A DNA stretch of 55,518 bases, taken from contig CAMYLP010000007.1 in NCBI GenBank assembly GCA_947259245.1, positions 1 through 55,518 of the forward strand. The letters run 5' to 3'. Position numbers and translations under genes: made by a program. Position 1 is the first letter of the stretch. Each line of letters opens with the position of its first letter. This document shows, piece by piece, positions 18,094 to 36,292 of the stretch. The notes beneath the pieces are model-generated. The model was not told the origin of the DNA. It ran no database searches and saw only the letters and a list, made by a program, of their open reading frames with translations. Source of the DNA: an uncultured Patescibacteria group bacterium (GTDB lineage: Bacteria; Patescibacteriota; Minisyncoccia; Phycocordibacterales; UBA12088).

Positions 18094-18094
18094 T

Positions 18095-19537
18095 ATGAGA
18101 AGCATCATCACAACAAGCGATGTGGACGTCACCTACAATAAAGGTCAGACGAACGAGTTCAAAGCGCTGAAGGGCGTCACCTGTGAAATTGCTTCACGCG
18201 AGTACATCATTTTCTTTGGCCCGTCCGGGTGTGGTAAATCGACGTTACTCTATAGTATTTTTGGTGTTCTTGAACCATCGGCAGGAGAAGTGATGGTGAA
18301 GGGTGATTCCATCTATAAGTATGAACCCATGGAGTTGGTGATGTACCAGCGAAAGACGATGGGCATTATGTACCAGTCGTTCAACCTCATACCATCACTG
18401 ACAGTGTTGGATAACGTGCAGCTCCCCCTTATCTTCGCCGGATTTCCACCAGTAACGCGTGAGCGCCGTGCGATGGAGCTCCTTGACCGATTTGGTATTG
18501 CTCACGTCGCACACAAACGACCGGCACTCCTTTCAGGTGGTCAACAGCAACGTGTATCTGTCGCGCGCAGCCTTGTGAATGATCCAGAGATTCTCATTGC
18601 CGATGAACCGGTGGGTAACCTTGACTTCGTTTCTGCGGAAGCCGTTATGAATACACTCGAAGAGATCAATCAGAACGATAAGAAGACCGTGCTTCTGGTT
18701 ACCCACGACGCGAAGTATCTGCCGTACGCGCACCGCGTGTTCTACCTCGACTATGGCAAGATAGATCGCATCGTACCAAATCCTGAGAAGCGACAGATCA
18801 TCAAGGTACGACCGGGTGAGACGATCGTGACCGAGATAGAGCAGCTTGCGCGCATCTATCCCTATGACACACCTGAACAATTGCGAGTGAAGTCACTCAT
18901 CAACTTCCTCACGCAGAGTCTCTCATTTGACCAAATAGTTCGTTTGGAGAAGATGACTCAGCATGTCATTGAAGGTGTCTTGTCCGAGGATCAGTTTCGC
19001 ACATTGTTAACGACAGACTACGAGGAGGGTGGTTGTGGCATCAAGCCAAAACAGGCCGAGGAAATGACACACAAAATGTTCCAGGTACTTGAACAAAGTC
19101 AGGACGTGGTACGTTTTCGTCGCGTGCATCGTGATCAAACAACCATCGATCTGGCGCGCTTTGAGCTCATCAAACACATACACACCCACATGGTAGGTGA
19201 GTATAAGGTCGAACCCGATTCACGTGAACTGGAACAACTCACAAAAATGGTCACCAACAGAGTATACGGGTATATCACGCGTGAAGAATTTCATCGACAA
19301 TTGAGATTACCGTTTGAAGAGGGTGGTGGGGGCTTTGACATCTACCTGGCCGCAGACCTTTCCCGGTACCTCGAAAAGCTCATTGCACAGGGAGTCTCAC
19401 ACTTTGTACAACACCAGGAGTCAAAGCCGGAGTCGACAAACCTGCACGCCAAACAGGCGGAGAAGTTTGAGGAAATAGACAAAGGTCTCTTTGGTCGTCT
19501 GACGCACATCTTGGCAAAAAAGAAACAAAACGCGTAA
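18095..19537 (+). CDS. ABC transporter ATP-binding protein (MacB/LolD-like) with a ~250-aa C-terminal extension
   Basis: Walker A GPSGCGKST, signature LSGGQQQRV, Walker B ILIADEP, H-loop VTHD. I prefer the ATG at 18095 (TAGTATG junction) over the TTG at 18083. The ATPase core ends near aa 235. Confidence 0.9.
   Translation: MRSIITTSDVDVTYNKGQTNEFKALKGVTCEIASREYIIFFGPSGCGKSTLLYSIFGVLEPSAGEVMVKGDSIYKYEPMELVMYQRKTMGIMYQSFNLIPSLTVLDNVQLPLIFAGFPPVTRERRAMELLDRFGIAHVAHKRPALLSGGQQQRVSVARSLVNDPEILIADEPVGNLDFVSAEAVMNTLEEINQNDKKTVLLVTHDAKYLPYAHRVFYLDYGKIDRIVPNPEKRQIIKVRPGETIVTEIEQLARIYPYDTPEQLRVKSLINFLTQSLSFDQIVRLEKMTQHVIEGVLSEDQFRTLLTTDYEEGGCGIKPKQAEEMTHKMFQVLEQSQDVVRFRRVHRDQTTIDLARFELIKHIHTHMVGEYKVEPDSRELEQLTKMVTNRVYGYITREEFHRQLRLPFEEGGGGFDIYLAADLSRYLEKLIAQGVSHFVQHQESKPESTNLHAKQAEKFEEIDKGLFGRLTHILAKKKQNA
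18944..19383 (+). repeat. Internal duplication in the ATPase C-terminal extension
   Basis: LEKMTQHVIEGVLSEDQFRTLLTTDYEEGGCGIKPKQAEEMTHKMFQVLE (from 18944) aligns with LEQLTKMVTNRVYGYITREEFHRQLRLPFEEGGGGFDIYLAADLSRYLEKL (from 19229). The two units start 95 codons apart. Confidence 0.7.
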
Positions 19538-19541
19538 CAGT

Positions 19542-20750
19542 ATGAGGATACAGGATATCGCAAAACTTTCGACTCGAATGTTCAAAACGAATCCAGCCCG
19601 AACGTGGCTCACTATTTTGGGCATGGGTGTCGGTACTGGCGCGGTCGTGACCTTGGTAGGTCTCGGCTTTGGACTGCAGAACATCATCCTTGAGCAGATC
19701 GTCCTCGGTGATACCTTGCTGTCACTCAATGTCACACCACCTCCCGCGCGGGCGGTAACCTTGAACCCACAAACGGTCCAGGAATTCTACGAAATAGAAC
19801 GTGTCCAGGATGTCGCACCCCTTGCGAGCTTCGCGGCACTTGTAACGTTCGATGGATTGACGGGTAACACGTTTCTGCAGGGGGCAAATCCAAACTACTT
19901 TCGGTTTACCGGAACAAAAGAGATATCCGGTAGGCTGTTTACGAGTGAGACAATTGAGGAAGACCGTTCAAGCGTGATACTGACGAGCGCTATGTTAAAA
20001 CTCTTTGAGGTTGAGGACCCAGAGACCGCCATTGGGAAGCAGGTCTCATTCCGAGTGTTCGTGCCACAGGAGGGCACCAACGAGACAATAGAAATGGAAA
20101 TGAAGAAGCGCTACACAATAGTGGGTATCAGTAGTGAGGAAAGCAGACCGGGCGCCATACTGCTTCTCGATGAATTGACAAGCCAGCTGGCGGTCACCGA
20201 GTATGAGCGGGTACAGGTCCGTGTCGAAGAGGTAGAGTTCCTTGATCCTGTCACCGAGTCGATCGTCGAGCGTGGCTTTGGCGTGACTGCACTCTCAAAG
20301 ACCGTCGAACAGGCAAACAAGATCTTCCAGGGCATACAGGCAGTGCTTGCCGTCTTTGGTGGTATCGCACTTGTGGTGTCAGCTATCGGCATGTTCAACA
20401 CCATGACGGTGACACTGCTCGAGCGTACCGGTGAGATCGGTATCATGCGTACGCTGGGTGCCTCGAGCAACGATATCAAGATTCTTTTCGTGTCGGAAGC
20501 AGTTATTGTGGGATTTCTCGGTGGTCTTGTTGGTATTGGCATAGGAGTTGGCATTGGATTCTCACTGAACACGATGGTGAACGTGGCTGCAGCGAACTTT
20601 GGCGGCAAAGCGGTGGCACTGTTCAGCTACCCCATGACCTTCATACTCTTCATTGCGACCTTCTCCGCGGTGGTCGGCTTTCTCACCGGCATATTCCCGG
20701 CGCGACGTGCCGCTGCACTAAACCCTCTTGACGCTATCCGATATAAGTAG
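19542..20750 (+). CDS. ABC transporter permease, FtsX/MacB family
   Basis: 402 aa with an N-terminal TM, a large extracytoplasmic domain and three C-terminal TM segments. It carries the motif GEIGIMRTLGASSNDI. The ATG lies 4 nt after the ATPase stop. Confidence 0.9.
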   Translation: MRIQDIAKLSTRMFKTNPARTWLTILGMGVGTGAVVTLVGLGFGLQNIILEQIVLGDTLLSLNVTPPPARAVTLNPQTVQEFYEIERVQDVAPLASFAALVTFDGLTGNTFLQGANPNYFRFTGTKEISGRLFTSETIEEDRSSVILTSAMLKLFEVEDPETAIGKQVSFRVFVPQEGTNETIEMEMKKRYTIVGISSEESRPGAILLLDELTSQLAVTEYERVQVRVEEVEFLDPVTESIVERGFGVTALSKTVEQANKIFQGIQAVLAVFGGIALVVSAIGMFNTMTVTLLERTGEIGIMRTLGASSNDIKILFVSEAVIVGFLGGLVGIGIGVGIGFSLNTMVNVAAANFGGKAVALFSYPMTFILFIATFSAVVGFLTGIFPARRAAALNPLDAIRYK

Positions 20751-20882: not shown

Positions 20883-22757
20883 ATGAGTATCAGCCCCACA
20901 TACACAAAAGGTCATATTGTTTTGACAATGGCATTAGCGCTGCTTTTCGTGGTGGCACTTTCGTTTCTCATAGATGCGAGACCAGGCGGAAGTACTTTGA
21001 GCGCTCAAGCAACTTCCACTGCAACCACAACAGTGACCGTGCTCAACACGCCGCCAGCCTGGACAGTAACCGCGCGCGAGTCCGTAGCGTCAGCGACATC
21101 AACGCCCACCAACTCAGGTGACACGGTAACTTGGACTGCCGTAGGGACCGACAGCAACGGCGAGGACTACTATCTCCTTATCTGTAAATCTAGCTCCACA
21201 CCTACACCAAGTGCAGGTCCACCCGTATGTGGCGGTGGTACCACCGATATCTGGGCTGTTTCTACCTCTACGCTCAGCGGCAGTGTTGCAAGCGTGAGTA
21301 CGACAACAGCCGAGTCATGGGCTGAGACAAATGCATGGTACGGGTACATTTGTGATAATAATCCTGGCTCTGCGGAATGTAACCCCACAATGTACAACGG
21401 GTTGCATGAAGGCGGTGCGAGTGCAACAAGCTCACCGTTCATGGTGAACCACAGGCCAACCATAACCACTGTCGCCGACGACTCACCACAGCTGCCGGGT
21501 GATATTGTCACGTGGACTTCTACTGCCGGTGACACAGACATCGCGGGCGGAGACGATACCGTGCAGCTCCACGTCTGTCAGACAGCTGGCTTTGATGCGG
21601 GTATACCTGCCTGTACAGGTACACAGTGGGCAACCTCGACCTTCATAGCGGACAATCCAAGCGCGACAACGTCCATCCCAGTACCATACCAGGACGGAGA
21701 CCACGATGCGTTCGTCTACCTCATCGATGAGCATGGTCATGTGTCCGTAAGTGCATGGCAAGGCTCAAGCACTGTGCTTACTGTAGCGAATGCCGCACCA
21801 TACGTAGCGTCTAGTTCGATACAACTCTACGATGTGTTTGGTTCAACCACCATAGACACAACGTTAGCGCTTACTGAGCCGGAGGGGGAGACACAAAATT
21901 ATGTAGTCGTATTTGATGTGACTGATGAAAACGGATGCCAAAATCTCTCCGCAGGGAATGAAGTTACCGATGTCGATATAAATGTGTTCCGTTCCGGCGC
22001 AGGTGGTCCAACGGGACTTCTCTGCGACGCGTCGGGTGAGTACAATGCGAACTACTGTTACACGCATACAAATTCCTTTTGGACACCTGTTTGCGTCCAG
22101 ACAGCCGCTAGCTGTACGGCAAGTGATTGGAACAACATTACCTGGGAATGCACGTTCCCACTCTGGTATATTGCGGATCCTACCGACGTAGGTAGCGAGT
22201 ATCCTGGTGAGGACTGGCGCGCGAGTGCACGTGCGACTGACGACGATGCCTCCACCGGAAACTACAGTACGGAGGATGAGGCAGCGGATGCGGGAGCAGA
22301 AATGACACAGTTCCTTTCATTCCGTGCGACTGGCAGCCCGATTGCATACGGTTCGTTCCAACCGGGATTTGGTAACGCAGAACACCCAGGCACGACAACG
22401 GTCTTTGCCACAGGAAACACCGGACTTGACCACTACCTATCAGGAGATGAGATGTGTACTACGTATCCTACATGTACCGGTAACGCAACGAGTACTATAT
22501 ATGTACCGTATCAGCACTATTCGACCACTTCGTCTCACGCGTACGGCTTTGACCTCGGCAACCAAACCTTTGAACTTGCAACAAGCAGCTCTCCGGTGCT
22601 CGTCGATGTAGACATCCTCAAAACAACGAGCACATCAAGCCCTTCGGAAGATGACACGTACTGGGGCATACTGGTTCCGGGTAGCATCGCGCTTGCCGGT
22701 GACTACATAGGCAGAAACTACATCGATGCTGCAATAGCACCGAGTTCTGCCTGGTAG
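20883..22757 (+). CDS. Secreted Cys-containing protein sharing its C-terminal module with the giant protein
   Basis: 624-aa ORF with an N-terminal anchor (IVLTMALALLFVVALSFL). It has two paralogous N-terminal domains (GDTVTWTAVGTDSNGEDYYLLIC / GDIVTWTSTAGDTDIAGGDDTVQLHVC). The C-terminal module is at 21804-22754. Confidence 0.85.
   Translation: MSISPTYTKGHIVLTMALALLFVVALSFLIDARPGGSTLSAQATSTATTTVTVLNTPPAWTVTARESVASATSTPTNSGDTVTWTAVGTDSNGEDYYLLICKSSSTPTPSAGPPVCGGGTTDIWAVSTSTLSGSVASVSTTTAESWAETNAWYGYICDNNPGSAECNPTMYNGLHEGGASATSSPFMVNHRPTITTVADDSPQLPGDIVTWTSTAGDTDIAGGDDTVQLHVCQTAGFDAGIPACTGTQWATSTFIADNPSATTSIPVPYQDGDHDAFVYLIDEHGHVSVSAWQGSSTVLTVANAAPYVASSSIQLYDVFGSTTIDTTLALTEPEGETQNYVVVFDVTDENGCQNLSAGNEVTDVDINVFRSGAGGPTGLLCDASGEYNANYCYTHTNSFWTPVCVQTAASCTASDWNNITWECTFPLWYIADPTDVGSEYPGEDWRASARATDDDASTGNYSTEDEAADAGAEMTQFLSFRATGSPIAYGSFQPGFGNAEHPGTTTVFATGNTGLDHYLSGDEMCTTYPTCTGNATSTIYVPYQHYSTTSSHAYGFDLGNQTFELATSSSPVLVDVDILKTTSTSSPSEDDTYWGILVPGSIALAGDYIGRNYIDAAIAPSSAW
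21804..22754 (+). other. C-terminal module paralogous to giant-protein residues encoded at 9825-10601
   Basis: See the motif list under feature 9825-10601. The motifs occur in the same order. Confidence 0.75.
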
Positions 22758-22783: not shown

Positions 22784-22804
22784 AAACCGTTTTGGCGGTT
22801 TTTT
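22784..22804 (+). terminator. Putative rho-independent terminator
   Basis: AAACCG (22784-22789) pairs with CGGTTT (22796-22801) around a 6-nt loop, followed by TTT. The stem is short. Confidence 0.4.
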
Positions 22805-22939
22805 GCTATTCCAAAGCAAAAAACTTGTGTTGTATGGTCTTAACCCACAGTTTTTCTACATAAATAAGTATCTTTCAAGTTGTTTTCCCGATACAATCTA
22901 TGGTACGGGCTCAAGCTCGGTACTGGGATTACAGAAATA

Positions 22940-24028
22940 ATGAGTAGACCACAGATACAAACGTGGGCACTGTTGCTATTTGGTATAGTGGCTGTTTTTG
23001 TGTTGGATGTCGCAACCGTCCATGCGGGATTTGGCATTACCCCTCCGTATGTGCGAAACGACAAACTAACACAGGGTTCCACGTACACACAGGAGATCAT
23101 TCTTGTGAGAGGAGATCCTGTGGAGGACCTCAAGGCAGAGATCACGCTTAATGTGCCCGGCATAGAAGACTGGATAACTATCGACCGAGGAAATGAGTTC
23201 CTCCTTCCGGCAGGTGAGAAGCAGGTTCCCATGCAGGTAACCATACGAGTACCCCAAGATGCACCATACGAACGATATCAGGGAAGCATACGCATTCGCA
23301 CACTTAGCCCGGACCCGGCTTCGGGCGTATCGATAGCATTGGGTGCACAGATAGACGTTGACCTGCGTGTGGTTGATGAGATACGTGACTTCGAGGTTAA
23401 GAGGGTGCGTATCAGTGAAACCGAGGAACCGCGCCGGTTTTGGTGGTTGGAGTATCCCGGCAGGATAACATTTACTATGGGTGTGGAAAATACAGGAAAT
23501 GCACCAACTGCTCCCTCACGTGTACAGCTCGATATCTATGATAAGCGCGGGAATGTCGTACTTGAAACAACCGTAAACACTAACACCATTGACGAGATAC
23601 TGCCGTTCGAAACACGCGAGGTGACAGCATACCTACCCACACGGCTACCACCGGGCGCCTACTTGGTACAATACTCCATCTTCCGATTTGAAGATGACGT
23701 AAAGCGTTCGGGCGAGCTCACGTTATCCGTGCTACCTATGGGTACACTCTCAGCGTACGCCGGCTACGGCCTGGAGGGGCTCTCCACGAGTGACCTTATG
23801 TCGATAATACTACCTATTGCGCTCGTACTGCTGCTTCTCCTTCTGTTTATATATCTCATGCATGCACGACGCGGCAACAATGGTGGGCGACCACGCAAGC
23901 CGCGCAAGCGTCGTTCTGGTGGGGGTAACGACAATATGCAGAGTCCACAAGAACGGCCACGGCCACCGCGTCGTGCCACGCATACGCAGGGTGTGGTCGA
24001 TCTCTCAGGGCGACGGCGCTCTCGATAG
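22940..24028 (+). CDS. Surface protein with signal peptide and C-terminal TM anchor plus Arg/Pro-rich tail
   Basis: The start is moved to the ATG at 22940, which gives the signal peptide MSRPQIQTWALLLFGIVAVFVLDVATVHA. Ig-like ectodomains follow, then the TM segment IILPIALVLLLLLLFIYLM and RRGNNGGRPRKPRKRRSGGG. Confidence 0.8.
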   Translation: MSRPQIQTWALLLFGIVAVFVLDVATVHAGFGITPPYVRNDKLTQGSTYTQEIILVRGDPVEDLKAEITLNVPGIEDWITIDRGNEFLLPAGEKQVPMQVTIRVPQDAPYERYQGSIRIRTLSPDPASGVSIALGAQIDVDLRVVDEIRDFEVKRVRISETEEPRRFWWLEYPGRITFTMGVENTGNAPTAPSRVQLDIYDKRGNVVLETTVNTNTIDEILPFETREVTAYLPTRLPPGAYLVQYSIFRFEDDVKRSGELTLSVLPMGTLSAYAGYGLEGLSTSDLMSIILPIALVLLLLLLFIYLMHARRGNNGGRPRKPRKRRSGGGNDNMQSPQERPRPPRRATHTQGVVDLSGRRRSR

Positions 24029-24029
24029 T

Positions 24030-25205
24030 ATGGTGTACATAGAGCGTGTGGGCTGGAGAGCACCAAAGACCCTGTTCGTTCTCATTGTAGCGTGTCTCGT
24101 AGTGCCTGTGTCGATAGTGCATTCGCAGTATGCGGCCACAACAACAGTATCGCTGTCAGTATGTGGCGACGCGCTAGTCGCACCAAGCGAATTCTGTGAT
24201 GATGGCACCAACACCGGCGCCTACTCGACCAGCACCACAGGAAGGAACTGCAATCCACTCTGCAGCGCGTGGGGACCGTACTGCGGGGATAGCGTGACGC
24301 AGGTATTTAATGGTGAGGAGTGCGACGATGGCAATAATGTTGCGGGTGATCTCTGCGACGCATTGTGCCAGAATGAATCACCACCTGTGACCGAAGGGGG
24401 AGGGGGCGGTGGAAGTTCCGGCGGCGGCGGCGGTCGTAGTAGCGGTAACAACGGTATTCCAGGCGCTTCCACAGACGGTGAAATTGACTATGAAGGTGAC
24501 ACAGATGTCAGAATCAGCGGACGCGCTTGTCCGGGCGCGACAGTGACCGTATTACGGGATGGGGATATTGAACGTTTAGTCGAAACTGACGGCAATGCAG
24601 AATTCAATTTTACACTTGCGGACCAGGTACCCGGCATAACCACCTTCGGATTCTGGGCCCTCGACGGTGCCGACAGGCGCTCCATCACCTACTCAGCAAC
24701 GTTCCAGATAGTCGAGAACGCGGTGACCACCCTTTCCGGCGTGCTCATCCCACCAACCCTTGCTGTCATACCGGAGCGGGTAGCACCCGGAGGCACCGTG
24801 TCATTTGAGGGGTGCGCACTACCCAGCACCAACGTACAAGCATACATTGATGATGGCGAGCGACCTGAAATTACAGTTGCAGCCAATAATGGAGACTGGG
24901 CTATTTCGTACGATACTACGCAGCTTGCAGCGGAGGTATTTCACACAGTAAAAGCAAACTACATCGATCCTCTCAATAGTGAGCTGAAGAGCGGCTTCAG
25001 TCAGATAAACAACTTCTACGTTGGCAACAGAGACGTTGACACGAACCTCACCGCTGACCTTAACTTTGACGGGTTCGTCAACCTGACAGATTTCTCCATA
25101 CTTTTGTTCAATTGGAACACGCAGAACACCAATGCGGATATCAATCAAGACGGAACTGTCTCACTGCCTGACTTCTCCATCATGCTGTTCTACTGGACGG
25201 GCTAA
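24030..25205 (+). CDS. Secreted protein: Cys-rich repeats (myxococcal/DUF4215 type) + Gly-rich linker + Ig-like domains + C-terminal dockerin
   Basis: The ATG at 24030 lies 1 nt after the upstream stop, and the ORF-track extension to 23817 overlaps the upstream gene. The protein has a signal anchor (LFVLIVACLVVPVSIV). CGD..EFCDDG..C..LC and CGD..EECDDGNN..GDLCDALC are the Cys-rich repeats. The dockerin is at the C-terminus. Confidence 0.85.
   Translation: MVYIERVGWRAPKTLFVLIVACLVVPVSIVHSQYAATTTVSLSVCGDALVAPSEFCDDGTNTGAYSTSTTGRNCNPLCSAWGPYCGDSVTQVFNGEECDDGNNVAGDLCDALCQNESPPVTEGGGGGGSSGGGGGRSSGNNGIPGASTDGEIDYEGDTDVRISGRACPGATVTVLRDGDIERLVETDGNAEFNFTLADQVPGITTFGFWALDGADRRSITYSATFQIVENAVTTLSGVLIPPTLAVIPERVAPGGTVSFEGCALPSTNVQAYIDDGERPEITVAANNGDWAISYDTTQLAAEVFHTVKANYIDPLNSELKSGFSQINNFYVGNRDVDTNLTADLNFDGFVNLTDFSILLFNWNTQNTNADINQDGTVSLPDFSIMLFYWTG
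24162..24377 (+). repeat. Two Cys-rich repeats of the CGDG..E.CDDGN type
   Basis: CGDALVAPSEFCDDGTNTG...CNPLC and CGDSVTQVFNGEECDDGNNVAGDLCDALC. Confidence 0.7.
25056..25199 (+). other. Dockerin-like module (two EF-hand-like segments)
   Basis: DLNFDGFVNLTDFSILLFNW ... DINQDGTVSLPDFSIMLFYW. Confidence 0.75.
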
Positions 25206-25218
25206 GGGTACGAGTATC

Positions 25219-26322
25219 ATGTCAAACATCCGTCACTATCCACTTCGTCATCGCCTCATCTCCCGTGGGCTACGGTATACTGGTAGTATGCGAATACTAC
25301 GTGTGCTGGCGTTATTTGTCGTAGCAGGAGGTCTTCCTGGTGCGCTACATGCGGCACAAATATACATAGACCTTGAATCGTCAAGCTATAGTCGTGCCGA
25401 TACTTTCTACGCTCCGGTACGTATCGACACACAGGGAGAATGTATCAATGCGGTATCGGTAGTGGTAGCATACGATCCGGAAGTCCTACATGTTCAAGAC
25501 GTCTCACTGGGGGATTCGATCATTACCCTCTGGACAGAACAGCCCACCATCGATCGGGAAAACGGCAGAGTCAGCTTCTCCGGCGGTGTACCCGGTGGAT
25601 TTTGTGGGCGCCTGATGGGCGATCCCGGCCTCACGAACACACTGGTTAAGTTGGTCGTGACCGGTGCGCCGCAAGCACGCGAGGTGACGCTCGGAGCCAC
25701 GACGTCACTCATCATCGAGCCAGGTACCAGTGTCTTCCTGCACGATGGGGCGGGTGGTGTGGCACCCCTCACAGTGCTTGGTGCCGAGGTGCATATGGTG
25801 TCCACCACCACCACACCGGTAAATGCATGGCTCGGTGATGTCGGTACAGACAGCACGGCACCCGAACTGTTCGAAGTTACACTGGTCAAGGGACCATCAC
25901 CCGGAAACAAACTGCACTACATCACGTTTAATACCACGGATAAGCAGAGCGGCATCGACCACTATGAGGTTTTAGAAACAGATCCCGATAAGTTTGGATT
26001 TCTTACGTGGGTACCACGCGAAGCATACTGGGTCCCGGCAAACAGTCCATCATATGTGCTGCGTGACCAGAAACTCCGCAGCAAAATAATGGTGAAAGCG
26101 GTCGACAAGAACGGTAACGAGCGAGTAGTAACGTATACGCCACCCATGAGTCCGCTTGCCACGTTTACACGCGCAAGCTTTCTCATACCGCTAGCAATCA
26201 TCATCGTTGTTCTTGGTGCACTGACCGTGCTTGCTGTACGGCTGATGCGCGTACGGCGTCGCCTCGAAGCGCACACAGACGCTGACTCGGACACAACAGA
26301 ACATGAACATGAAGAGAATTAG
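25219..26322 (+). CDS. Cohesin-like domain protein with C-terminal TM anchor
   Basis: The start is moved to the ATG at 25219, 14 nt after the upstream stop. It has a signal segment (ILRVLALFVVAGGLPGALHA) and a cohesin-like region. The TM segment FLIPLAIIIVVLGALTVLAV is followed by RLMRVRRR and an acidic tail. Confidence 0.8.
   Translation: MSNIRHYPLRHRLISRGLRYTGSMRILRVLALFVVAGGLPGALHAAQIYIDLESSSYSRADTFYAPVRIDTQGECINAVSVVVAYDPEVLHVQDVSLGDSIITLWTEQPTIDRENGRVSFSGGVPGGFCGRLMGDPGLTNTLVKLVVTGAPQAREVTLGATTSLIIEPGTSVFLHDGAGGVAPLTVLGAEVHMVSTTTTPVNAWLGDVGTDSTAPELFEVTLVKGPSPGNKLHYITFNTTDKQSGIDHYEVLETDPDKFGFLTWVPREAYWVPANSPSYVLRDQKLRSKIMVKAVDKNGNERVVTYTPPMSPLATFTRASFLIPLAIIIVVLGALTVLAVRLMRVRRRLEAHTDADSDTTEHEHEEN
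25351..25670 (+). other. Cohesin-like module 1 (approximate borders)
   Basis: IYIDLESSSYSRADTFYAPVRIDTQGECINAVSVVVAYDPEVLHVQDVSLGDSIITLWTEQPTIDRENGRVSFSGGVPGG. Confidence 0.6.
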
Positions 26323-28126
26323 TTTGATAGTAGCACTGGTTGTCCTACACATGATCGGTACCACGCCGAACGTTGACGCTGCTGAGGCCGCGCTTTCACT
26401 GACGCCGTCCAATGGCATTTACCCTATTGGGGAGGCCTTTGAGGTTGACGTGCGCATCGATACCGGGGGCAGTGATATCGGAAGTGCTGATATGAGCTTG
26501 GTGTATGACCCGGCGGACATGGAGTATGTTGCAGTATCGGATGAAGGATCGATATTTTCTACACTCCTCGTGGACAGTGACACGTCCCCTGGGCGTATTG
26601 AGTTATCTGGTTTTATTGCACGCGGTCGCGCTACGTACAGTGGAAGTGACGGGCACGTAGCACAGTTGACCTTCGTGCCGCTAAGAAATGTGGCGACGGA
26701 GGTACGATTCGCCTCGGGCTCTGCGACACCACCACTCTCACTCACGGCGTCAGTTGGCGACCTCACCAATGTACTCACCAATCTACGTGCTGCCACCTAC
26801 ACGCTCGTGCCGCGTGAAAGTGTTGCACCGGCCGCCGTCGTATACGCTCAGGAAGCAGAGGGCTTTGAGATAACACCACTCCCGGTACCTGATCATGAGT
26901 GGTTTGCGACGACGAGCGTGAAGTTATCGTGGACACTCCCGGACAGTGTCGTAGAAATGCGCACCACGGTGTCCGATGACCCGAATGCGACACCTGATAC
27001 GAACTACCCCATACCGCTCACCTCTGTAGAGTTGACCGAGCTTGCCGAAGGACAACAATTTTTTATGCTGCAATTCAAATACGGAGATAGCTGGGGCAAT
27101 GCTATCCGTTACCCGATAGCCATTGATAGTACGGGACCAAGTCACATAGTGCTCAAGGAAGAAGAGCGTCAGGATGAGAGTGATCCGCGTGTAGGCATTG
27201 CCATCGAAGCGAGTGATGAGCTTTCGGGCATCGGGTACTACGAGATCGGTATAGATGGTGCCCAGGCGACGTTATGGGAGCGTCCAGCAAACGGTATCTA
27301 TATTCCCGATGACCTCAGTCCAGGTGAACACGTACTGACGGTGACGGCATATGATCGAGCAGGGAACAGCACTTCGACCGACCTCCTCTTTCTCGTGAGG
27401 TCACTCGATCCCCCGGTGCTCGTAGATGCACCGGACCATGTTCTCACGGGTGATAGTATTACTGTGCGCGGTACCACGTACCCCAATGCGGAAGTTACTG
27501 TCTACACTTCGTACGATGATGGGGAGGCGTCGGAACATGTTGTACGTAGCGATGATGCGGGCGGATTTGTGGCAACCTTAACCGAAGGTGCGCGTGCAGG
27601 CAAGTATACTGTTTCCTTCAAGGTCACGGACGAACGAGGTGCCGCAAGTCCGGTTTCCATCAAACGTTCCATCAACGTGAAACAGCCGTACATTATGCTA
27701 TACGGAAACGTTGCGGTAACATACCTCTCTGTCCTAGTACCGCTCCTAGCACTCATCGTACTGCTAGTGCTCACGCTGTGGCTCAGTTTCGTGTTCGTAC
27801 GAAGTTACAAACGACGTATCGGTCGGGAGACAAATGAAGTGTACCACGTCGTTCATGATGAGTTCAAAGAACTCCGCAAATACTTGATACAACAGATAGG
27901 CACGCTGGAAAAAGCGAACCAGTCGCGGGAGCTGACCCGTGAAGAAATGCAAATTTTTACTGAGCTCTCAAAACGTCTCGACCATATTGAGCGCCACATC
28001 CAAGAGGAGGTTGATGACATCACGACTGTTGAACCCGAGGTAGATGGAGAAGTAAGACGCCGTAGCACTCGCACCGCGGACGTCTCTACACCGAAGAAGC
28101 ACACAATTACCATCGAGCGAACATAA
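26303..28126 (+). CDS. Cohesin-like domain protein with Ig-like domains, TM segments and a ~110-aa charged cytoplasmic tail
   Basis: 607 aa, overlapping the upstream gene by 20 nt. It has a signal peptide (ISLIVALVVLHMIGTTPNVDA) and an N-terminal cohesin-like region. The hydrophobic block VAVTYLSVLVPLLALIVLLVLTLWLSFVFV is followed by a helical K/E/R-rich tail. Confidence 0.85.
   Translation: MNMKRISLIVALVVLHMIGTTPNVDAAEAALSLTPSNGIYPIGEAFEVDVRIDTGGSDIGSADMSLVYDPADMEYVAVSDEGSIFSTLLVDSDTSPGRIELSGFIARGRATYSGSDGHVAQLTFVPLRNVATEVRFASGSATPPLSLTASVGDLTNVLTNLRAATYTLVPRESVAPAAVVYAQEAEGFEITPLPVPDHEWFATTSVKLSWTLPDSVVEMRTTVSDDPNATPDTNYPIPLTSVELTELAEGQQFFMLQFKYGDSWGNAIRYPIAIDSTGPSHIVLKEEERQDESDPRVGIAIEASDELSGIGYYEIGIDGAQATLWERPANGIYIPDDLSPGEHVLTVTAYDRAGNSTSTDLLFLVRSLDPPVLVDAPDHVLTGDSITVRGTTYPNAEVTVYTSYDDGEASEHVVRSDDAGGFVATLTEGARAGKYTVSFKVTDERGAASPVSIKRSINVKQPYIMLYGNVAVTYLSVLVPLLALIVLLVLTLWLSFVFVRSYKRRIGRETNEVYHVVHDEFKELRKYLIQQIGTLEKANQSRELTREEMQIFTELSKRLDHIERHIQEEVDDITTVEPEVDGEVRRRSTRTADVSTPKKHTITIERT
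26390..26720 (+). other. Cohesin-like module 2 (approximate borders)
   Basis: LSLTPSNGIYPIGEAFEVDVRIDTGGSDIGSADMSLVYDPADMEYVAVSDEGSIFSTLLVDSDTSPGRIELSGFI...AQLTFVPL. Confidence 0.65.
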
Positions 28127-28128
28127 AT

Positions 28129-28160
28129 ACAGGGTTGGTACCGAGAGGTACCAACCCTGT
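28129..28160. terminator. Perfect 14-bp inverted repeat between convergent genes (probable bidirectional terminator)
   Basis: ACAGGGTTGGTACC-gaga-GGTACCAACCCTGT. It lies 3 nt after the stop at 28126 and 12 nt before the stop of the minus-strand gene. The flanks are only weakly T-rich. Confidence 0.55.
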
Positions 28161-28171
28161 TGAAAGAAACA

Positions 28172-28663
28172 TCAGTGGCCGCGTGTACGCTTAATGCATG
28201 CCCAGATCTCACCGTGCGTATGGTCGACCTGCACGGTATGCATGCGCTGAATAGCCGCACCGGAACCTGCCACACCTGCGCCGAGCAGAACGGCGGGTGA
28301 CGCAAGGAGACCAAGCGCCAGGGAACCGCCTACGACTGCAGATGCTTTCGTTGCCGCGTGTGGGTCGGCGGGGCGTTCACCTAACACGATCTGTGGTTTG
28401 CCGTTCTGCGACCGCTCAGTATTGAGCTCAGTGACGCAGCTATCCAGGGCTTCCTTCGTTGGTTCGTCCAAGCCGATTGGTGGCTTGTAATAGTAGGGCT
28501 TCGGCTTGGTTTTACGCATACTCGACACTTTGTCCGAGGCAGCTGATGCGCCGTTGCTAATGCTCTCTTTAACAGAGGCGAGCGTTGTACCTGTTGTCTG
28601 ACACCCACTGCTTATAGCGAGGGTAAGCACAGCGACCATGCAGGTCGTGATAGTTCGTTTCAT
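28172..28663 (-). CDS. Lipoprotein of unknown function with a Gly-zipper-like C-terminal region
   Basis: Lipobox LAISSGC after a basic/hydrophobic N-terminus (MKRTITTCMVAVLT). GGAGG (28670-28674) lies 6 nt upstream of the ATG. The C-terminus has AVVGGSLALGLLASPAVLLGAGVAGSGAA. Confidence 0.8.
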   Translation of the reverse strand: MKRTITTCMVAVLTLAISSGCQTTGTTLASVKESISNGASAASDKVSSMRKTKPKPYYYKPPIGLDEPTKEALDSCVTELNTERSQNGKPQIVLGERPADPHAATKASAVVGGSLALGLLASPAVLLGAGVAGSGAAIQRMHTVQVDHTHGEIWACIKRTRGH

Positions 28664-28759
28664 TTTTGACCTCCCGAGGTCGTCACGGTGACAGTATTGT
28701 CTACCACAAGAGTACTGAACGGTGTCGTTCTGTCAACATCTTGTATGTGTGGACTGAAC

Positions 28760-29470
28760 CTAGCGGAAGAGGAGCGCGAGCGAACGCTGCTCGCCACTTG
28801 TTGCCATGTTTGAAATGACGATGCCAATATCGGCGAGTGTTATCTTACCGTCCTGATTCAAGTCGTAGCCACGCTGATAGGAGAGGAATAAGCGTGCGGA
28901 AACCAGACCGAAGTCAAGCAAGTTGACCGTGCTATCCCCGTTTACATCTGGAGATGGGTGCGTGGCAGGGCGTATGGAGAGCGTGATAGGTTTGGCTTCG
29001 CAGTCAACTTGTCTGCCGGTACCGTCATGAGCAAGCAATTGGATATCAGTGACGTCAATTGTTGCTGTACCTTCCTTCAACGGTGTTGCGGTAACTGAAA
29101 GTACGATGCCTGTCCCCAGGAAGCCAGAATCACTCACAATACCACCTGAGAAATGTACGCGGTGACCGTCCTCAACAGATGGTTCTTCAGACCACAAGTC
29201 GATAATGGACAGGGAACGGTCGGTACCGACTATTTCGACGTACTCTTTTGGAGCGATGAGCGTTGCTCCAATGACGTTTATCGGTTCATCGGTCTTAGCG
29301 GTTAGGTGTAGCGTTACGGTCTCCCCCACTTCCACAAAACGGTTATCCTCGGGCACCAAACAAACTTCGTCCGGGTTCCGCACGAGGGAGAGTGAAGAAG
29401 CGAGCAGCAGCGCCATAGGCACTCCCACTACAATTTTGTATCTATGCTGTTGTAGTCGGTACCTCACCAT
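28760..29470 (-). CDS. Secreted protein carrying both a cohesin-like and a dockerin-like module
   Basis: 236 aa with a signal segment (IVVGVPMALLLASSLSL). The cohesin-like core is at 29036-29335 and the dockerin at 28805-28948. Confidence 0.8.
   Translation of the reverse strand: MVRYRLQQHRYKIVVGVPMALLLASSLSLVRNPDEVCLVPEDNRFVEVGETVTLHLTAKTDEPINVIGATLIAPKEYVEIVGTDRSLSIIDLWSEEPSVEDGHRVHFSGGIVSDSGFLGTGIVLSVTATPLKEGTATIDVTDIQLLAHDGTGRQVDCEAKPITLSIRPATHPSPDVNGDSTVNLLDFGLVSARLFLSYQRGYDLNQDGKITLADIGIVISNMATSGEQRSLALLFR
28805..28948 (-). other. Dockerin-like module
   Basis: DVNGDSTVNLLDFGLVSARL ... DLNQDGKITLADIGIVISNM. Confidence 0.75.
29036..29335 (-). other. Cohesin-like module 3 (approximate borders)
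   Basis: VEVGETVTLHLTAKTDEPINVIGATLIAPKEYVEIVGTDRSLSIIDLWSEEPSVEDGHRVHFSGGIV..GIVLSVTATPLKEGTATIDV. Confidence 0.6.
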
Positions 29471-30117: not shown

Positions 30118-31350
30118 ATGCTGGACACATTTCGTACCACATTTGTATACGTCGCGATCGTCGTGGTCCTTGGCACCGTGTTTGTGCTTGCCCCCGACAG
30201 CAGAGCTCAGGAAACCTCTGATGCACTACCACTCAGTGAGCTTATGGCTGCGCCCGGTCCAGAAGCGGTAGAAAAGGCAACACTGTACTTCTTTCATAGC
30301 CCAACGTGTCCGCACTGTCGGGAAGAGCAAGTGTTTCTGGACCGAATGCAAGATAAGTACCCTGAGCTCGAGATACATCGTTATGAAGCGGCAGACACAA
30401 CGTACCAACCACTGATGGTACAGCTTGCTCGTGATCATGGTGCCGAACAGTACCTTGGTCTGGTACCACTTACGTTCGTGAACGGACAGTACTTCACTGG
30501 GTATGACAGTCACACGACCACGGGCGTTGAGATAGAACGAGCAATACGTGAGCTACTCAAACTACCGCCGATGGAAGAGCACAGCGAACCCGTGCGAGAA
30601 GGCATCCATGTACCCATTGTGGGCACCGTCTACCCAGAAGACTATTCATTGGGAGCGCTTGCTATAACCCTCGGCTTTCTCGACGGCTTCAATGTGTGTT
30701 CGCTCGGGGCACTGATACTCATCATCGGCCTTTCGTTGAAGCTGCAGCGACGCCGTGCCATTGTCCTCTTTGGCGGCCTGTTCATCCTTACCACAGCACT
30801 CGTCTACGGTGGGCTCATTGTCGCGTGGTACAAGATATTTGACCTTTTCACCCAGTACATCACCCTCATGAAGGTCGGTGTCGCGTTCCTCGCGCTCGGA
30901 GGAGGACTGTATTTCCTCAAAGAGTACCTCCGTATGCGGAAAGTCGGCGCGGTATGCGAGCTAACACAGTCGCCTTTCATCAACAAGCTTATGGAGCGCA
31001 CCGGCAATGCCTTTGAGGACAATGGCAAGCTCCTCACGATACTCGGTGCCGTCTTTTTGTTCGCGGCGGTGGTGACCGTCGTGGAGTTCCCGTGCTCTGC
31101 CGCGGTCCCGGTCGTGTTTGCGGGAATCCTCGCGGAAGCCGGACTCTCGACCGCAGGTTACCTCGGCTACATTGGCCTCTTCGTACTCTTCTACATGCTC
31201 GATGAGCTCATCATCTTCAGCATTGCCGCGTACCGCTTGAAGCTTTGGATGATGAACGGTACATTCACAAAATATGCGGTGCTTGCTGAAGCACTCATTT
31301 TGACCGCTATTGGGGCGTGGTACCTTGGCGCGGCGACAGGAATCTTCTAG
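30118..31350 (+). CDS. Thioredoxin-fold (CPHC) domain fused to a DsbD/CcdA-like multi-pass membrane domain
   Basis: N-terminal anchor, then LYFFHSPTCPHCREEQVFL (a thioredoxin-type CxxC). At least six hydrophobic helices follow, with conserved-looking Cys in DGFNVCSLGALIL and VVEFPCSAAVPVVF. Confidence 0.75.
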   Translation: MLDTFRTTFVYVAIVVVLGTVFVLAPDSRAQETSDALPLSELMAAPGPEAVEKATLYFFHSPTCPHCREEQVFLDRMQDKYPELEIHRYEAADTTYQPLMVQLARDHGAEQYLGLVPLTFVNGQYFTGYDSHTTTGVEIERAIRELLKLPPMEEHSEPVREGIHVPIVGTVYPEDYSLGALAITLGFLDGFNVCSLGALILIIGLSLKLQRRRAIVLFGGLFILTTALVYGGLIVAWYKIFDLFTQYITLMKVGVAFLALGGGLYFLKEYLRMRKVGAVCELTQSPFINKLMERTGNAFEDNGKLLTILGAVFLFAAVVTVVEFPCSAAVPVVFAGILAEAGLSTAGYLGYIGLFVLFYMLDELIIFSIAAYRLKLWMMNGTFTKYAVLAEALILTAIGAWYLGAATGIF

Positions 31351-31461: not shown

Positions 31462-32946
31462 ATGATACCAGCCATAATTGCTGCGCTGGTGGTCCTCGCG
31501 GGTGGGACCACTGTTGTAGTCGCAGACGATGCAACACCCGGTGATGCGCTGTACGGTGTAGACCGTGCTACCGAGCGCGTGCGTCTCGTACTTGCGAGCG
31601 ATGAACGTGAGGACGAGCTTCGGCTGCGCTTTGCTGAAGAGCGCCTTGACGAACTTGAGGAGGTCATTGAAGAAGAATCTGACGATAGCGACGATAGTGA
31701 TGACGGGGGCGATAGTGCTGAGGGTCTGACGGAAGCCGAAGCAAAAGTATTCACCAATGATACCGTTGTGAAGGTGGAGCTCAACGACATGAAGCAAATA
31801 TTGGTCGACGAAAACACAAGTACCGAACGCACTGATATTGTAATGTTTGTTGCAGAGAGTCTTGGTCTTGAGACTGACGTCGTGGATGCAGTACTGACCA
31901 TTGAGGTCAAAAATCGTGCAAGTACCGAGGAGGATAAACAGGTAAAGCGCATTAAGGACAAGGTGCGCGTCGAAACAGCACTTGAGAATGCCACCGTATC
32001 GCTTGCGGAAGTTGCAGCGAAGCTTGATGAAAAGGGGAACGAAGAAGCAAATGAAGCTGTCCAAGCAGTACTCGACCGCTTGATGTTGCGAATAGAGACG
32101 CTTCCGGACGAGGTGAAGACACGTGTTGAATACGAGGTTCATGACGATGGCGAGGAGACGCTGCGGCTAAAGGTTGACGAGGGCGGCAACACCCAGCCTA
32201 TCGAGATAAAGCGTCGTATAGACGAAGATGGCGAGTATCGCTACGAGTGGCGCGGCGAAGGGGTGCGCACACGTATTGATGTCGATGAAGATGGTGAGGT
32301 GGAGATTGAGGTACGTCCAGATAATCGAGGTAAGGGAAACAACAATCCAGACGATGATGAAGGCGAGGAACGCGAAGACCCTATCGATGATGACAAACAA
32401 GGCCTGACCGAGGCAGAGATCCGTATTGGCGAGACGACGACGTCAGCAGAGGTTGAGTTCAACGATCAAGACTTTGACCTCACCTTCGAGACGACTGACA
32501 TTGAGGTGGTGAAAGCACGTATCGCCGCTGAGTTCGGCACAACTGTTGCGGAAGTTGAGGCAGTGTTGAAACTTGAAGACAGCGATGACGATATGGACGA
32601 CGCTGACGATGTCGACGAAGATGCAGACGATGAGTCAGAAGAGAGTGATACTGACGATGAGTCCGAGCTTCGGATAGAGGCACGTGTGCAAGACGGGAAG
32701 ACCGACGTGCATGTAAAGAACGGCGATGAAGAAGATGAGTACACGTCGACAGCAGCAAGCCGAGGTGCGCTCATCATGGAGCTTGCGTCAAAGTATAGCC
32801 TCACGACAAGTGCAGTTGACGAAGCGCTTGACTATGAGGTGGAGGAGTCCAAGGACGATGACGAGCCTGACAGTGACGAGGATGACCCGTCGGAGGACTC
32901 GCTCGATGACAGCGACGATGTTGATGACGTGGACGACGACGAGTAG
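31462..32946 (+). CDS. Membrane-anchored hyper-acidic (D/E-rich) repeat protein
   Basis: 494 aa with an N-terminal TM (IPAIIAALVVLAGGTTVVVA). It carries long D/E runs (DDSDDSDDGGD, DDDMDDADDVDEDADDESEESDTDDE, DDSDDVDDVDDDE) and three ~60-aa related modules. Confidence 0.85.
   Translation: MIPAIIAALVVLAGGTTVVVADDATPGDALYGVDRATERVRLVLASDEREDELRLRFAEERLDELEEVIEEESDDSDDSDDGGDSAEGLTEAEAKVFTNDTVVKVELNDMKQILVDENTSTERTDIVMFVAESLGLETDVVDAVLTIEVKNRASTEEDKQVKRIKDKVRVETALENATVSLAEVAAKLDEKGNEEANEAVQAVLDRLMLRIETLPDEVKTRVEYEVHDDGEETLRLKVDEGGNTQPIEIKRRIDEDGEYRYEWRGEGVRTRIDVDEDGEVEIEVRPDNRGKGNNNPDDDEGEEREDPIDDDKQGLTEAEIRIGETTTSAEVEFNDQDFDLTFETTDIEVVKARIAAEFGTTVAEVEAVLKLEDSDDDMDDADDVDEDADDESEESDTDDESELRIEARVQDGKTDVHVKNGDEEDEYTSTAASRGALIMELASKYSLTTSAVDEALDYEVEESKDDDEPDSDEDDPSEDSLDDSDDVDDVDDDE
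31726..32847 (+). repeat. Three dispersed ~60-aa modules in the acidic protein
   Basis: LTEAEAKVFTNDTVVKVELND...IVMFVAESLGLETDVVDAVLTIEV (31726-31910). LTEAEIRIGETTTSAEVEFND...VVKARIAAEFGTTVAEVEAVLKLE (32404-32580). ELRIEARVQDGKTDVHVKNGD...LIMELASKYSLTTSAVDEALDYEVE (32665-32847). Confidence 0.65.
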
Positions 32947-35786: not shown

Positions 35787-36206
35787 CTAGAGACACTTAC
35801 GGCAGCGGCACCCGTGAGGTTTTATAAACTCATCAACGTACTCCTCACCGTAGTCATACACCAGCTCGGTGCCCGGCCTAATGTGTTGTATGGCCTTAAT
35901 AAAAATGCGCTTGCCTCGTTGTATGGATTCACAGTTAGGTACACACGAGTGATTGATGTAACGGGCTATGTTATGACGGGTAGCACCGTTGATTGTCCAT
36001 CTACCGTTTATCTCAAATAGGTAGCGTGCTCGGGTGAGTTCATTTGCCTCCTCGTTCGTAATGATCGGGCCCACGTACTCAATGTACATCCCCGGCTTTA
36101 TCTTCTTGGTTGCATAGAGGCCCAGGCCAGCACTGGAGCGGCCTATACGAAGGGAAGTGTGTGGAATGGGATTCGTTCTACGCATGTGAGGGCTATTAAA
36201 ACACAT
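35787..36206 (-). CDS. SET-domain protein (putative protein lysine methyltransferase)
   Basis: SAGLGLYATKKIKPGMYIEYVGPII, RYINHSCVPNC, GTELVYDYG and a C-terminal Cys cluster (HGCRCRKC). The start is uncertain: ATGs at 36206, 36185 and 36266 are all in frame. Confidence 0.85.
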   Translation of the reverse strand: MCFNSPHMRRTNPIPHTSLRIGRSSAGLGLYATKKIKPGMYIEYVGPIITNEEANELTRARYLFEINGRWTINGATRHNIARYINHSCVPNCESIQRGKRIFIKAIQHIRPGTELVYDYGEEYVDEFIKPHGCRCRKCL

Positions 36207-36231
36207 ATGTATGTATATGTCTAGAACAACG

Positions 36232-36259
36232 TTGACATCTATATAATCTATGTTAAAAT
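36232..36259 (+). promoter_or_regulatory. Promoter TTGACA-16-(TGt)TAAAAT
   Basis: A perfect -35 at 36232-36237 and an extended -10 (TGTTAAAAT) at 36251-36259. An AGGGGAG Shine-Dalgarno-like tract precedes the ATG at 36293. Confidence 0.55.
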
Positions 36260-36292
36260 ACATCACGAACTACGTCATAGGGGAGATACGCA

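Follow-up and report, generated by a model that had tools for sequence, protein, structure and literature searches.

A Conserved Cohesin–Dockerin Gene Cluster Predicted to Encode a Membrane-Anchored, Enzyme-Free Surface Complex in Parcubacteria

Introduction

The question raised by positions 22940–29470 of contig CAMYLP010000007.1 (assembly GCA_947259245.1) is what cohesin and dockerin modules do in a bacterial gene cluster that carries them without polysaccharide-degrading enzymes. The contig comes from an uncultured Patescibacteria group bacterium, placed by GTDB in the lineage Bacteria; Patescibacteriota; Minisyncoccia; Phycocordibacterales; UBA12088. The whole stretch of DNA that was analysed, 55,518 nucleotides (nt) in length, is referred to here as the window. 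An initial annotation of this DNA had described six genes filling the region, with three cohesins and two dockerins among their products. The listing of open reading frames (ORFs) and their translations bears out the six genes, of which g1–g4 lie on the plus strand and the other two, g5 and g6, on the minus strand.

The reading that we favour, with moderate confidence, is that the cluster encodes a surface complex of Parcubacteria, a group of the Candidate Phyla Radiation (CPR), which has a fixed composition, is anchored in the membrane and is held together by non-cellulosomal cohesin–dockerin pairing. Parcubacteria count among the most abundant bacteria that have not been cultivated, and the organisation of their envelope and any contact between their cells and others are poorly understood. 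The operon offers a small testable parts list: three cohesins as anchored sockets, two dockerins as plugs, a secreted Cys-rich subunit and an adjacent transporter. Its predicted interactions can be checked with short recombinant modules and thus without any culture.

Cohesin and Dockerin Modules

Two dockerins are encoded in the cluster, one at the C-terminus of g2 (24030–25205, plus strand) and one in g6 (28760–29470, minus strand). The limits set by their own hidden Markov models (HMMs), 25056–25202 (+) and 28802–28948 (−), are nearly identical to those proposed initially (25056–25199 and 28805–28948). The Pfam family Dockerin_1 (PF00404), with a gathering score of 22.9 bits, matches both modules above this threshold, at 30.5 bits in g2 (aa 342–385) and at 29.8 bits in g6 (aa 175–221). 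Additionally, the g6 family profile matches solved dockerins among the PDB sequences (E 1.4e-4). A DNA pattern of the DxNxDGx[V/I]xxxD type finds g2 and g6 only across the 55.5 kb, with 0 matches expected by chance, and all four Ca2+ loops are canonical, with D1, N3, D5 and D12 intact and also conserved among the orthologues. The g2 dockerin is built of two near-identical segments, DLNFDGFVNLTDFSILLFNW and DINQDGTVSLPDFSIMLFYW, and the motif DFSILLFxW occurs twice. Such near-identical halves are a feature associated with dual-binding-mode dockerins. The segments of the g6 dockerin begin with DVNGDSTVNLLD and DLNQDGKITLAD, and the AlphaFold2 (AF2) model of g6 has the expected dockerin helices at aa 184–195 and 212–223. 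The arrangement is that of a type I dockerin, in which duplicated segments consist of an EF-hand-like loop followed by a helix.

The g2 dockerin exceeds all other modules of the operon in conservation, with a mean p-distance of 0.27 compared with 0.56 for the rest of g2 and 0.57–0.66 for the cohesins. It diverges half as fast as the remainder of its own protein, which fits the expectation for a binding interface. The DNA pattern shows no further dockerin in the 55.5-kb window, and the HMM none in the 28 related loci or their flanks of 10 kb on either side.

The cohesins are distributed over g3 (25219 or 25288 to 26322, plus strand), g4 (26303–28126, plus strand) and g6, one in each protein. 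The HMM limits are 25348–25812 (+) for g3, 26375–26818 (+) for g4 and 28958–29371 (−) for g6. The intervals first assigned to these modules (25351–25670, 26390–26720 and 29036–29335) were right about their identity and cover only about 70% of each. The g4 cohesin scores 33.9 bits with the Pfam family Cohesin (PF00963), above the gathering score of 24.1 bits, and the same family is present in some homologues of g3 and in one homologue of g6. Structure models, computed with AF2 as single chains, cover g3 and g6. There are 82 homologues of g6, of about 236 aa, and an alignment of 37 was used for the model, in which the predicted local distance difference test (pLDDT) exceeds 90 in the beta-sandwich core. 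In a Foldseek comparison of this model with the PDB, all 50 matches listed are cohesins, the best with E 7e-8, a target TM-score of about 0.7 and a probability of 1.00. The g3 model, with a mean pLDDT of 86, also returns cohesins in all 50 matches listed; the best is 2w1n, a construct of a cohesin and an FN3 domain (E 5e-10, TM-score about 0.7, probability 1.00). Both models superpose in this way on the cohesin fold, a nine-stranded beta-jelly roll. The HMM or structural match to cohesins on which the initial annotation had staked its proposal is therefore present, through Pfam for g4 and through Foldseek for g3 and g6.

The three modules are also related to one another. The cohesin regions of g3 and g6 are homologous (hhalign probability 99.4%, E 2.7e-21), and a single HMM derived from the three cohesin families together gives 84–182 bits for each of the copies. 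The sequence skeleton common to the three comprises ...INA..., S-I-x-x-LW-x-E-P, FSGG and LAxDGxG. Because the g3 and g6 models match cohesins, the two regions are homologous and the skeleton is common to all three, the count of three cohesins and two dockerins is considered correct. No protein with more than one cohesin was detected by HMM in the window or in the related loci. Pfam finds no glycoside hydrolase (GH), carbohydrate-binding module (CBM), carbohydrate esterase (CE) or polysaccharide lyase (PL) domain in the cluster proteins or their neighbours, and the absence of glycoside hydrolases and CBMs from all six proteins agrees with what had been stated at first.

Architecture and Predicted Membrane Topology

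The topology of the proteins was derived from a hydropathy scan. The g3 protein consists of a signal peptide, the cohesin, an FN3-like domain and a C-terminal transmembrane helix, followed by a short charged, basic tail. In g4, the signal peptide and the cohesin are followed by an Ig-like stalk (Big_13) of about 300 residues, a transmembrane helix at aa 481–499 and basic residues, and the protein ends in a charged tail of about 110 aa, predicted to be cytoplasmic. The proposal that two of the cohesin carriers are type I membrane proteins thus holds for g3 and g4, in both of which a C-terminal transmembrane helix precedes a basic stretch.

The g2 protein differs from these carriers in being the only subunit without any membrane anchor in the scan. 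Its order is a signal-like segment, Cys-rich repeats of the DUF4215/TIGR02232 type, a Gly-rich linker, Big_6 Ig-like domains and the C-terminal dockerin. It holds 11 Cys, and the repeats match DUF4215 at 41 bits (Pfam) and TIGR02232 at 38 bits (NCBIfam), so that the earlier description of a dockerin carried by a Cys-rich repeat protein, here a secreted one, is confirmed. A membrane protein with the CPHC motif (410 aa, 30118–31350, plus strand), with only weak thioredoxin matches (E about 0.2), is encoded near g6 in the window, with a VIT1-family gene between them, and directly beside g6 in the related locus L003. This protein may handle extracytoplasmic thiol-disulfide chemistry near the Cys-rich proteins g2 and g0, the latter with 14 Cys.

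The third cohesin carrier, g6, begins with an N-terminal hydrophobic helix (aa 12–30; 29381–29437), after which come the cohesin, a Pro-rich linker of 7 residues and the dockerin. The conservation of this helix (0.72) is similar to that of the cohesin (0.62) and the dockerin (0.71), and the signal peptides of g3 and g1 reach only 0.36 and 0.32. Since the helix is conserved like the folded domains and unlike these signal peptides, it is interpreted as a retained membrane anchor, and g6 is probably a signal-anchored membrane protein rather than a soluble adaptor. The presence of a cohesin and a dockerin on one protein had been recognised correctly; the free adaptor role given to it fits poorly with the conservation of the helix. 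If g6 is membrane-anchored, all three cohesins would be tethered to the membrane, and g2 alone would need its dockerin to be retained. The architecture also implies different heights of the cohesins, which would be membrane-proximal in g6, raised on one FN3-like domain in g3 and carried by the stalk of about 300 residues in g4. SLH domains were not detected by Pfam, and the predicted anchors are transmembrane helices; the LPXTG sortase signal was not specifically scanned for.

The remaining two genes of the region encode proteins of a different kind. The product of g1 (22940–24028, plus strand) has a signal peptide, an ectodomain of about 250 aa, a transmembrane helix at aa 286–304 and a long basic tail, and is conserved in 22 loci. 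Its ectodomain is probably a beta-sandwich, with sub-threshold matches to Wzt_C (E 8e-4) and FxLYD (21.4 against 23 bits). Of the initial description of g1, the signal peptide and the transmembrane helix stand, and the Ig-like character finds backing in these two sub-threshold matches only. The small protein g5 (28172–28663, minus strand) has a plausible lipobox, whose Cys21 is conserved in the related loci L001 and L003 at only 20–27% identity. No tblastn match to g5 was obtained in any related locus at 1e-5. It is probably a fast-evolving lipoprotein, as had been suggested; as a member of the cluster, it is weakly conserved and limited to close relatives, and whether it belongs to the system is doubtful.

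Gene Organisation

All four plus-strand genes had initially been regarded as translationally coupled. The gap of 1 nt between g1 and g2 and the overlap of 20 nt between g3 and g4 are confirmed; the gap between g2 and g3, reported as 14 nt, is 13 nt if g3 starts at 25219. Met24 of g3 is nearly invariant in an alignment of 41 homologues, so the start is more likely at 25288, which would extend the gap to 82 nt. Tight coupling of g2 to g3 is therefore uncertain.

Between the convergent genes g4 and g5, positions 28129–28160 form a perfectly palindromic hairpin whose stem is 14 bp long (ACAGGGTTGGTACC-GAGA-GGTACCAACCCTGT) and which is probably a bidirectional terminator. A second candidate lies at 22784–22825 (+), directly past the stop codon of the upstream gene g0 and about 110 nt before g1, where a consensus scan found overlapping hairpins followed by a T-run. 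These hairpins are possibly a terminator or an attenuator ahead of g1, and the transcription of g0 may be separate from, or attenuated relative to, that of g1–g4.

Conservation across Related Loci

Relatives of the cluster were collected with tblastn and scans with the module HMMs from 28 GTDB loci as well as from JGI and Logan contigs. The metagenome-assembled genomes with the 28 GTDB loci bear the names Parcubacteria group, Paceibacterota, Kaiserbacteria, Lloydbacteria, Patescibacteria group, uncultured Candidatus Saccharibacteria or no more than "bacterium". Going by these names and by those of the homologues, the organism belongs to the Patescibacteria/Parcubacteria. Conservation in related genomes had been named as a check of the proposal, and the same gene order, FtsX-g0-g1-g2-(gX)-g3-g4-(g5)-g6, recurs across these loci, with the identity of g6 falling to 25–30%. 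According to the module HMMs, every complete locus encodes exactly three cohesins and two dockerins, with no others within ±10 kb. Because distant Parcubacteria lineages have retained this set of modules together with its gene order, the cluster is regarded as most likely encoding a fixed surface complex and not a cellulose-degrading machine. By the breadth of their conservation, these genes look like core envelope equipment rather than a strain-specific adhesin.

The unit is larger than the six genes first described. Directly upstream are g0 and a MacB-type permease, both in the window and in 13 of the 13 related loci that reach that far. The g0 gene (20883–22757, plus strand), the first of the conserved block, encodes a protein of 624 aa with an N-terminal hydrophobic helix, and 12 of its 14 Cys are invariant. 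Beyond weak Tad signals, g0 has no Pfam, NCBIfam or PDB match, as judged from the family profile against the PDB and from Pfam searches of all family members. For g1, the same searches yielded only weak Wzt_C signals. The idea that g0 or g1 could be hidden cohesins was ruled out by hhalign probabilities of 1% for g0 and 24% for g1.

The permease (19542–20750, plus strand, 402 aa) matches MacB_PCD and FtsX in Pfam, and is preceded by an ABC ATPase gene (18083–19537, plus strand, 484 aa; ABC_tran E 9e-31). With ABC_tran, MacB_PCD and FtsX all above the Pfam cut-offs, the pair is a MacB-type (type VII) ABC transporter. The best partial NCBIfam matches of the ATPase are LolD, FtsE and MacB, none of which reaches its equivalog cut-off, and the LolCE and MacB matches of the permease are below cut-off as well. 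No specific subfamily is therefore assigned, because the LolCDE, MacB and FtsEX equivalog cut-offs are not reached. The ATPase also has a C-terminal extension of about 250 aa, with two similar segments around EEGG(C/G)G motifs and no family assigned. Directly upstream of the transporter, with an overlap of 11 nt, lies a gene for a protein of 488 aa (16627–18093, plus strand), which combines a purple-acid-phosphatase N-terminal domain with fibronectin type III domains and has no detected catalytic domain.

One clade, clade B (L016, L017–L032), departs from the common arrangement in that g6 is co-directional with g0–g4. An extra secreted protein of 383 aa is encoded there between g2 and g3 (L016 5125–6276), and its C-terminal half is matched again, more weakly, about 12 kb further on in 9 of these loci (L016 10722–12440). 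At the position of g5, this clade has a different protein of 223 aa with no detectable similarity to g5, and g6 is followed by a conserved protein of 572 aa. Neither the 383-aa nor the 572-aa protein is found in the window.

The families themselves are large. The g2 family comprises no fewer than 1875 clusters at 90% identity; the 120 members listed are 302–438 aa long, nearly all about 370–440, and nearly all contain DUF4215 and most Dockerin_1 and/or Big_6. For g3, 1767 clusters at 50% identity were obtained at E<=1e-30. Among the representative proteins, six (P0323, P0324, P0327, P0398, P0404 and P0462) combine g3-like and g4-like parts in a single chain of 735–968 aa, and in P0323 the junction falls at the expected site of the g3 transmembrane helix and the g4 signal peptide. 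Such joined proteins could be true fusions or gene calls merged over the 20-nt overlap.

Proposed Mechanism and Alternative Explanations

In the proposed mechanism, g2 would be retained on the cell solely via its conserved, symmetric dockerin, plugged into one of the cohesins. The dockerin of g6 would tie this protein to g3 or g4; docking onto its own cohesin is unlikely, because the linker between the two modules has only 7 residues. The outcome would be a membrane-anchored hetero-oligomer displaying the Cys-rich repeats of g2 outward, and g0, g1 and the MacB-type transporter, judging from synteny, would share the envelope function. As for the role of such a complex, we guess that it would serve the architecture of the envelope or contact with a surface or a partner cell, and not the degradation of polymers.

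Several observations weigh against this proposal. Two of the three cohesins fail the Pfam threshold, with g3 at 17.9 bits and g6 without a match. Profile searches recognised no fold in g0 and g1, which amount to one third of the block, and the transporter is linked to the cluster only by synteny. A mirror-tree analysis compared the distance matrices of the g2 and g6 dockerins (Doc2 and Doc6) with those of the g3, g4 and g6 cohesins (Coh3, Coh4 and Coh6) over 21 operons, controlling for g1. The partial correlations are all positive, from 0.29 to 0.58, and the highest value for both dockerins belongs to Coh4, so that no partners are singled out. Conservation is not significantly concentrated on the 8-3-6-5 sheet of the cohesins, the canonical site of dockerin binding, relative to the opposite sheet (p 0.13 for g6 and 0.48 for g3). 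With three cohesins and two dockerins, one socket is unaccounted for. Finally, in the subclade of the window (window, L001 and L003), the g4 cohesin has replaced LWxEP and LAxDGxG, both of which are kept in g3, in g6 and in the g4 proteins of other clades; this replacement may reflect a changed or lost binding specificity. The motifs nevertheless provide a lead on the pairing, which is suggestive only. Those of Doc6 and Coh4 vary by clade and those of Doc2 and Coh3/Coh6 are constant, a pattern that may point to Doc6–Coh4 and Doc2–Coh3/6 pairs.

The first alternative, which we consider unlikely, is that of independent surface proteins. In this case, the modules would be real and would not pair with each other: the proteins would act independently at the surface, the cohesin-like sandwiches serving as stalks or glycan-binding modules, the dockerins as Ca2+-stabilised tags for another target, for example the cell wall, an S-layer or a host surface, and the gene order being kept by shared regulation. 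The sub-threshold Pfam scores of g3 and g6, the lack of a discriminating signal in the mirror-tree and sheet-conservation tests and the unequal number of modules would all be accommodated. Non-cellulosomal cohesins and dockerins are, moreover, widespread and their roles mostly unknown (PMC9012536). What independent proteins leave unexplained is why the same strict numbers of cohesins and dockerins recur in each of the complete loci without further copies close by, how g2 would be retained with no other means of attachment, and why its dockerin is far more constrained than the rest of the protein. The one archaeal case of adjacent genes that has been tested also turned out to be a cognate pair; its side-by-side genes and its lack of enzymes recur here.

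Decidedly less probable is a non-covalent fibre, in which g6 units would form a putative head-to-tail chain rooted in g3 or g4 and closed off by the g2 dockerin, the bearer of the Cys-rich tip, and the MacB-type transporter might extract or extrude the subunits. Such a fibre would make use of both modules of g6, whose short linker disfavours self-docking, and would explain the ratio of three cohesins to two dockerins as well as the invariable presence of the transporter; CPR bacteria are also described as building filaments of Ig-like subunits with membrane-anchored helpers (bioRxiv 10.64898/2026.03.03.709456). The N-terminal helix of g6, conserved like a retained anchor, would however hold each unit in the membrane, and the families of the Pam pilus do not match (PamR reaches 15.7 bits where 300 are required, and the other Pam models give no match). 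A bolder form of polymerisation, which we regard as a long shot, would make the entire block, ABC transporter and g6 included, a Parcubacteria-wide organelle with which these ultra-small cells hold a partner, assembled by cohesin–dockerin polymerisation and loaded or extruded by the transporter through mechanotransmission. If true, this would be a way of building a filament distinct from sortase, chaperone-usher, type IV and Pam pili.

A minimal cellulosome-like degrading machine with its enzymes encoded elsewhere in the genome is close to refuted: cohesins and dockerins are the hallmark of cellulosomes and amylosomes, but no GH, CBM, CE or PL domain lies in or beside the cluster, no other dockerin lies in the 55.5 kb or within ±10 kb of the 28 loci, each carrier has one cohesin in place of a multi-cohesin scaffoldin, and anchoring is by transmembrane helices with no SLH domain detected.

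The membrane-anchored complex held by cohesin–dockerin pairing thus stays the preferred interpretation. If its pairs bind, cohesin–dockerin assembly would be extended to a lineage-wide, membrane-anchored and enzyme-free complex. The modules could then serve as handles for labelling or pulling down CPR cells and as new orthogonal pairs for protein engineering.

Neighbouring Genes

Other genes of the window lie further from the block. A giant ORF at 117–10604 (plus strand) encodes 3495 aa with a single Pfam match, DUF2341, at about aa 2795–2870, and is probably another large surface protein. On the other side of the cluster are a DUF5667 protein whose long tail is extremely acidic (31462–32946, plus strand) and a small bacterial SET-domain protein (35787–36266, minus strand).

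Comparison with Known Systems

Non-cellulosomal cohesins and dockerins have been known for a long time from both bacteria and archaea (Peer et al. 2009, cited in PMC9012536), and the general kind of system described here is therefore already known. The closest example is found in Archaeoglobus fulgidus, in which the neighbouring genes ORF2375 and ORF2376 specify a non-cellulosomal cohesin and dockerin that bind each other strongly and specifically (PMC9705933). As in that archaeon, which does not degrade cellulose, the genes of the present cluster are adjacent, each protein has at most one cohesin, and enzymes are absent. Of the structures listed for the g6 model, the A. fulgidus cohesin (2xdh) ranks second (E 1.1e-7). 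Unlike the archaeal pair, the cluster is a fixed operon of three cohesins and two dockerins with predicted transmembrane anchors on the cohesin carriers. It also has a subunit with Cys-rich DUF4215 repeats, lies next to a MacB-type transporter and is conserved across a whole CPR lineage; its pairing is a prediction.

A second comparison is provided by OlpA and OlpC of Clostridium thermocellum (3ul4 and 4dh2), single-cohesin surface proteins which retain a dockerin partner, as is putatively the case here. Their structures match the g3 and g6 models with target TM-scores of 0.67–0.75. OlpA and OlpC are anchored to the cell wall via SLH domains and serve the display of enzymes. The present cluster differs from the C. 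thermocellum cellulosome in its predicted transmembrane-helix anchors, its lack of enzymes and the absence of a multi-cohesin scaffoldin. The modules of Clostridium perfringens (2w1n, 2vo8, 2jh2 and 2ozn) are non-cellulosomal, like those described here, and in 2w1n the order of a cohesin followed by an FN3 domain equals that of the g3 ectodomain. These modules, however, ride on large secreted enzymes such as glycoside hydrolases and toxins, whereas in the cluster the carriers are small membrane proteins without a catalytic domain.

Among uncultivated microorganisms, anaerobic methanotrophic (ANME) archaea have extracellular proteins rich in dockerins and cohesins, without a link to cellulose, for which a role in cell–cell interaction has been proposed (PMC9012536). 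Both cases concern uncultivated, partner-dependent microbes without a cellulose link; the ANME proteins are numerous and vary between close relatives, whereas the content and order of the single operon described here are fixed. Within CPR bacteria, the Pam pilus of Saccharimonadia and Microgenomatia, encoded by a CPR-specific operon, is assembled by donor-strand exchange with PapD-like chaperones, and its components are all reported with predicted N-terminal signal sequences, several of them also with C-terminal transmembrane anchors (bioRxiv 10.64898/2026.03.03.709456). The two operons share the encoding of beta-sandwich envelope proteins and C-terminal transmembrane anchors, found here in g1, g3 and g4; the Pam system has no cohesin or dockerin and is reported from other CPR classes. 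Membership of the Pam pilus was ruled out with NCBIfam, since the sub-threshold PamR score given above belongs to g4 and PamA, PamB, PamC and PamD have no match. An essential dockerin-domain protein, SEML1_0315, has been reported from Southlakia, a cultivated member of the Saccharibacteria (PMC10633639). It was rejected as a part of this operon, being about 927 aa long and located in an unrelated gene neighbourhood.

Literature searches, from which subscription journals were not covered, found no published description of the operon. What is new in comparison with these systems is the combination of an enzyme-free and predictedly transmembrane-anchored set of cohesins and dockerins with a fixed 3:2 stoichiometry, which is conserved in a major CPR lineage and is always located beside a MacB-type transporter.

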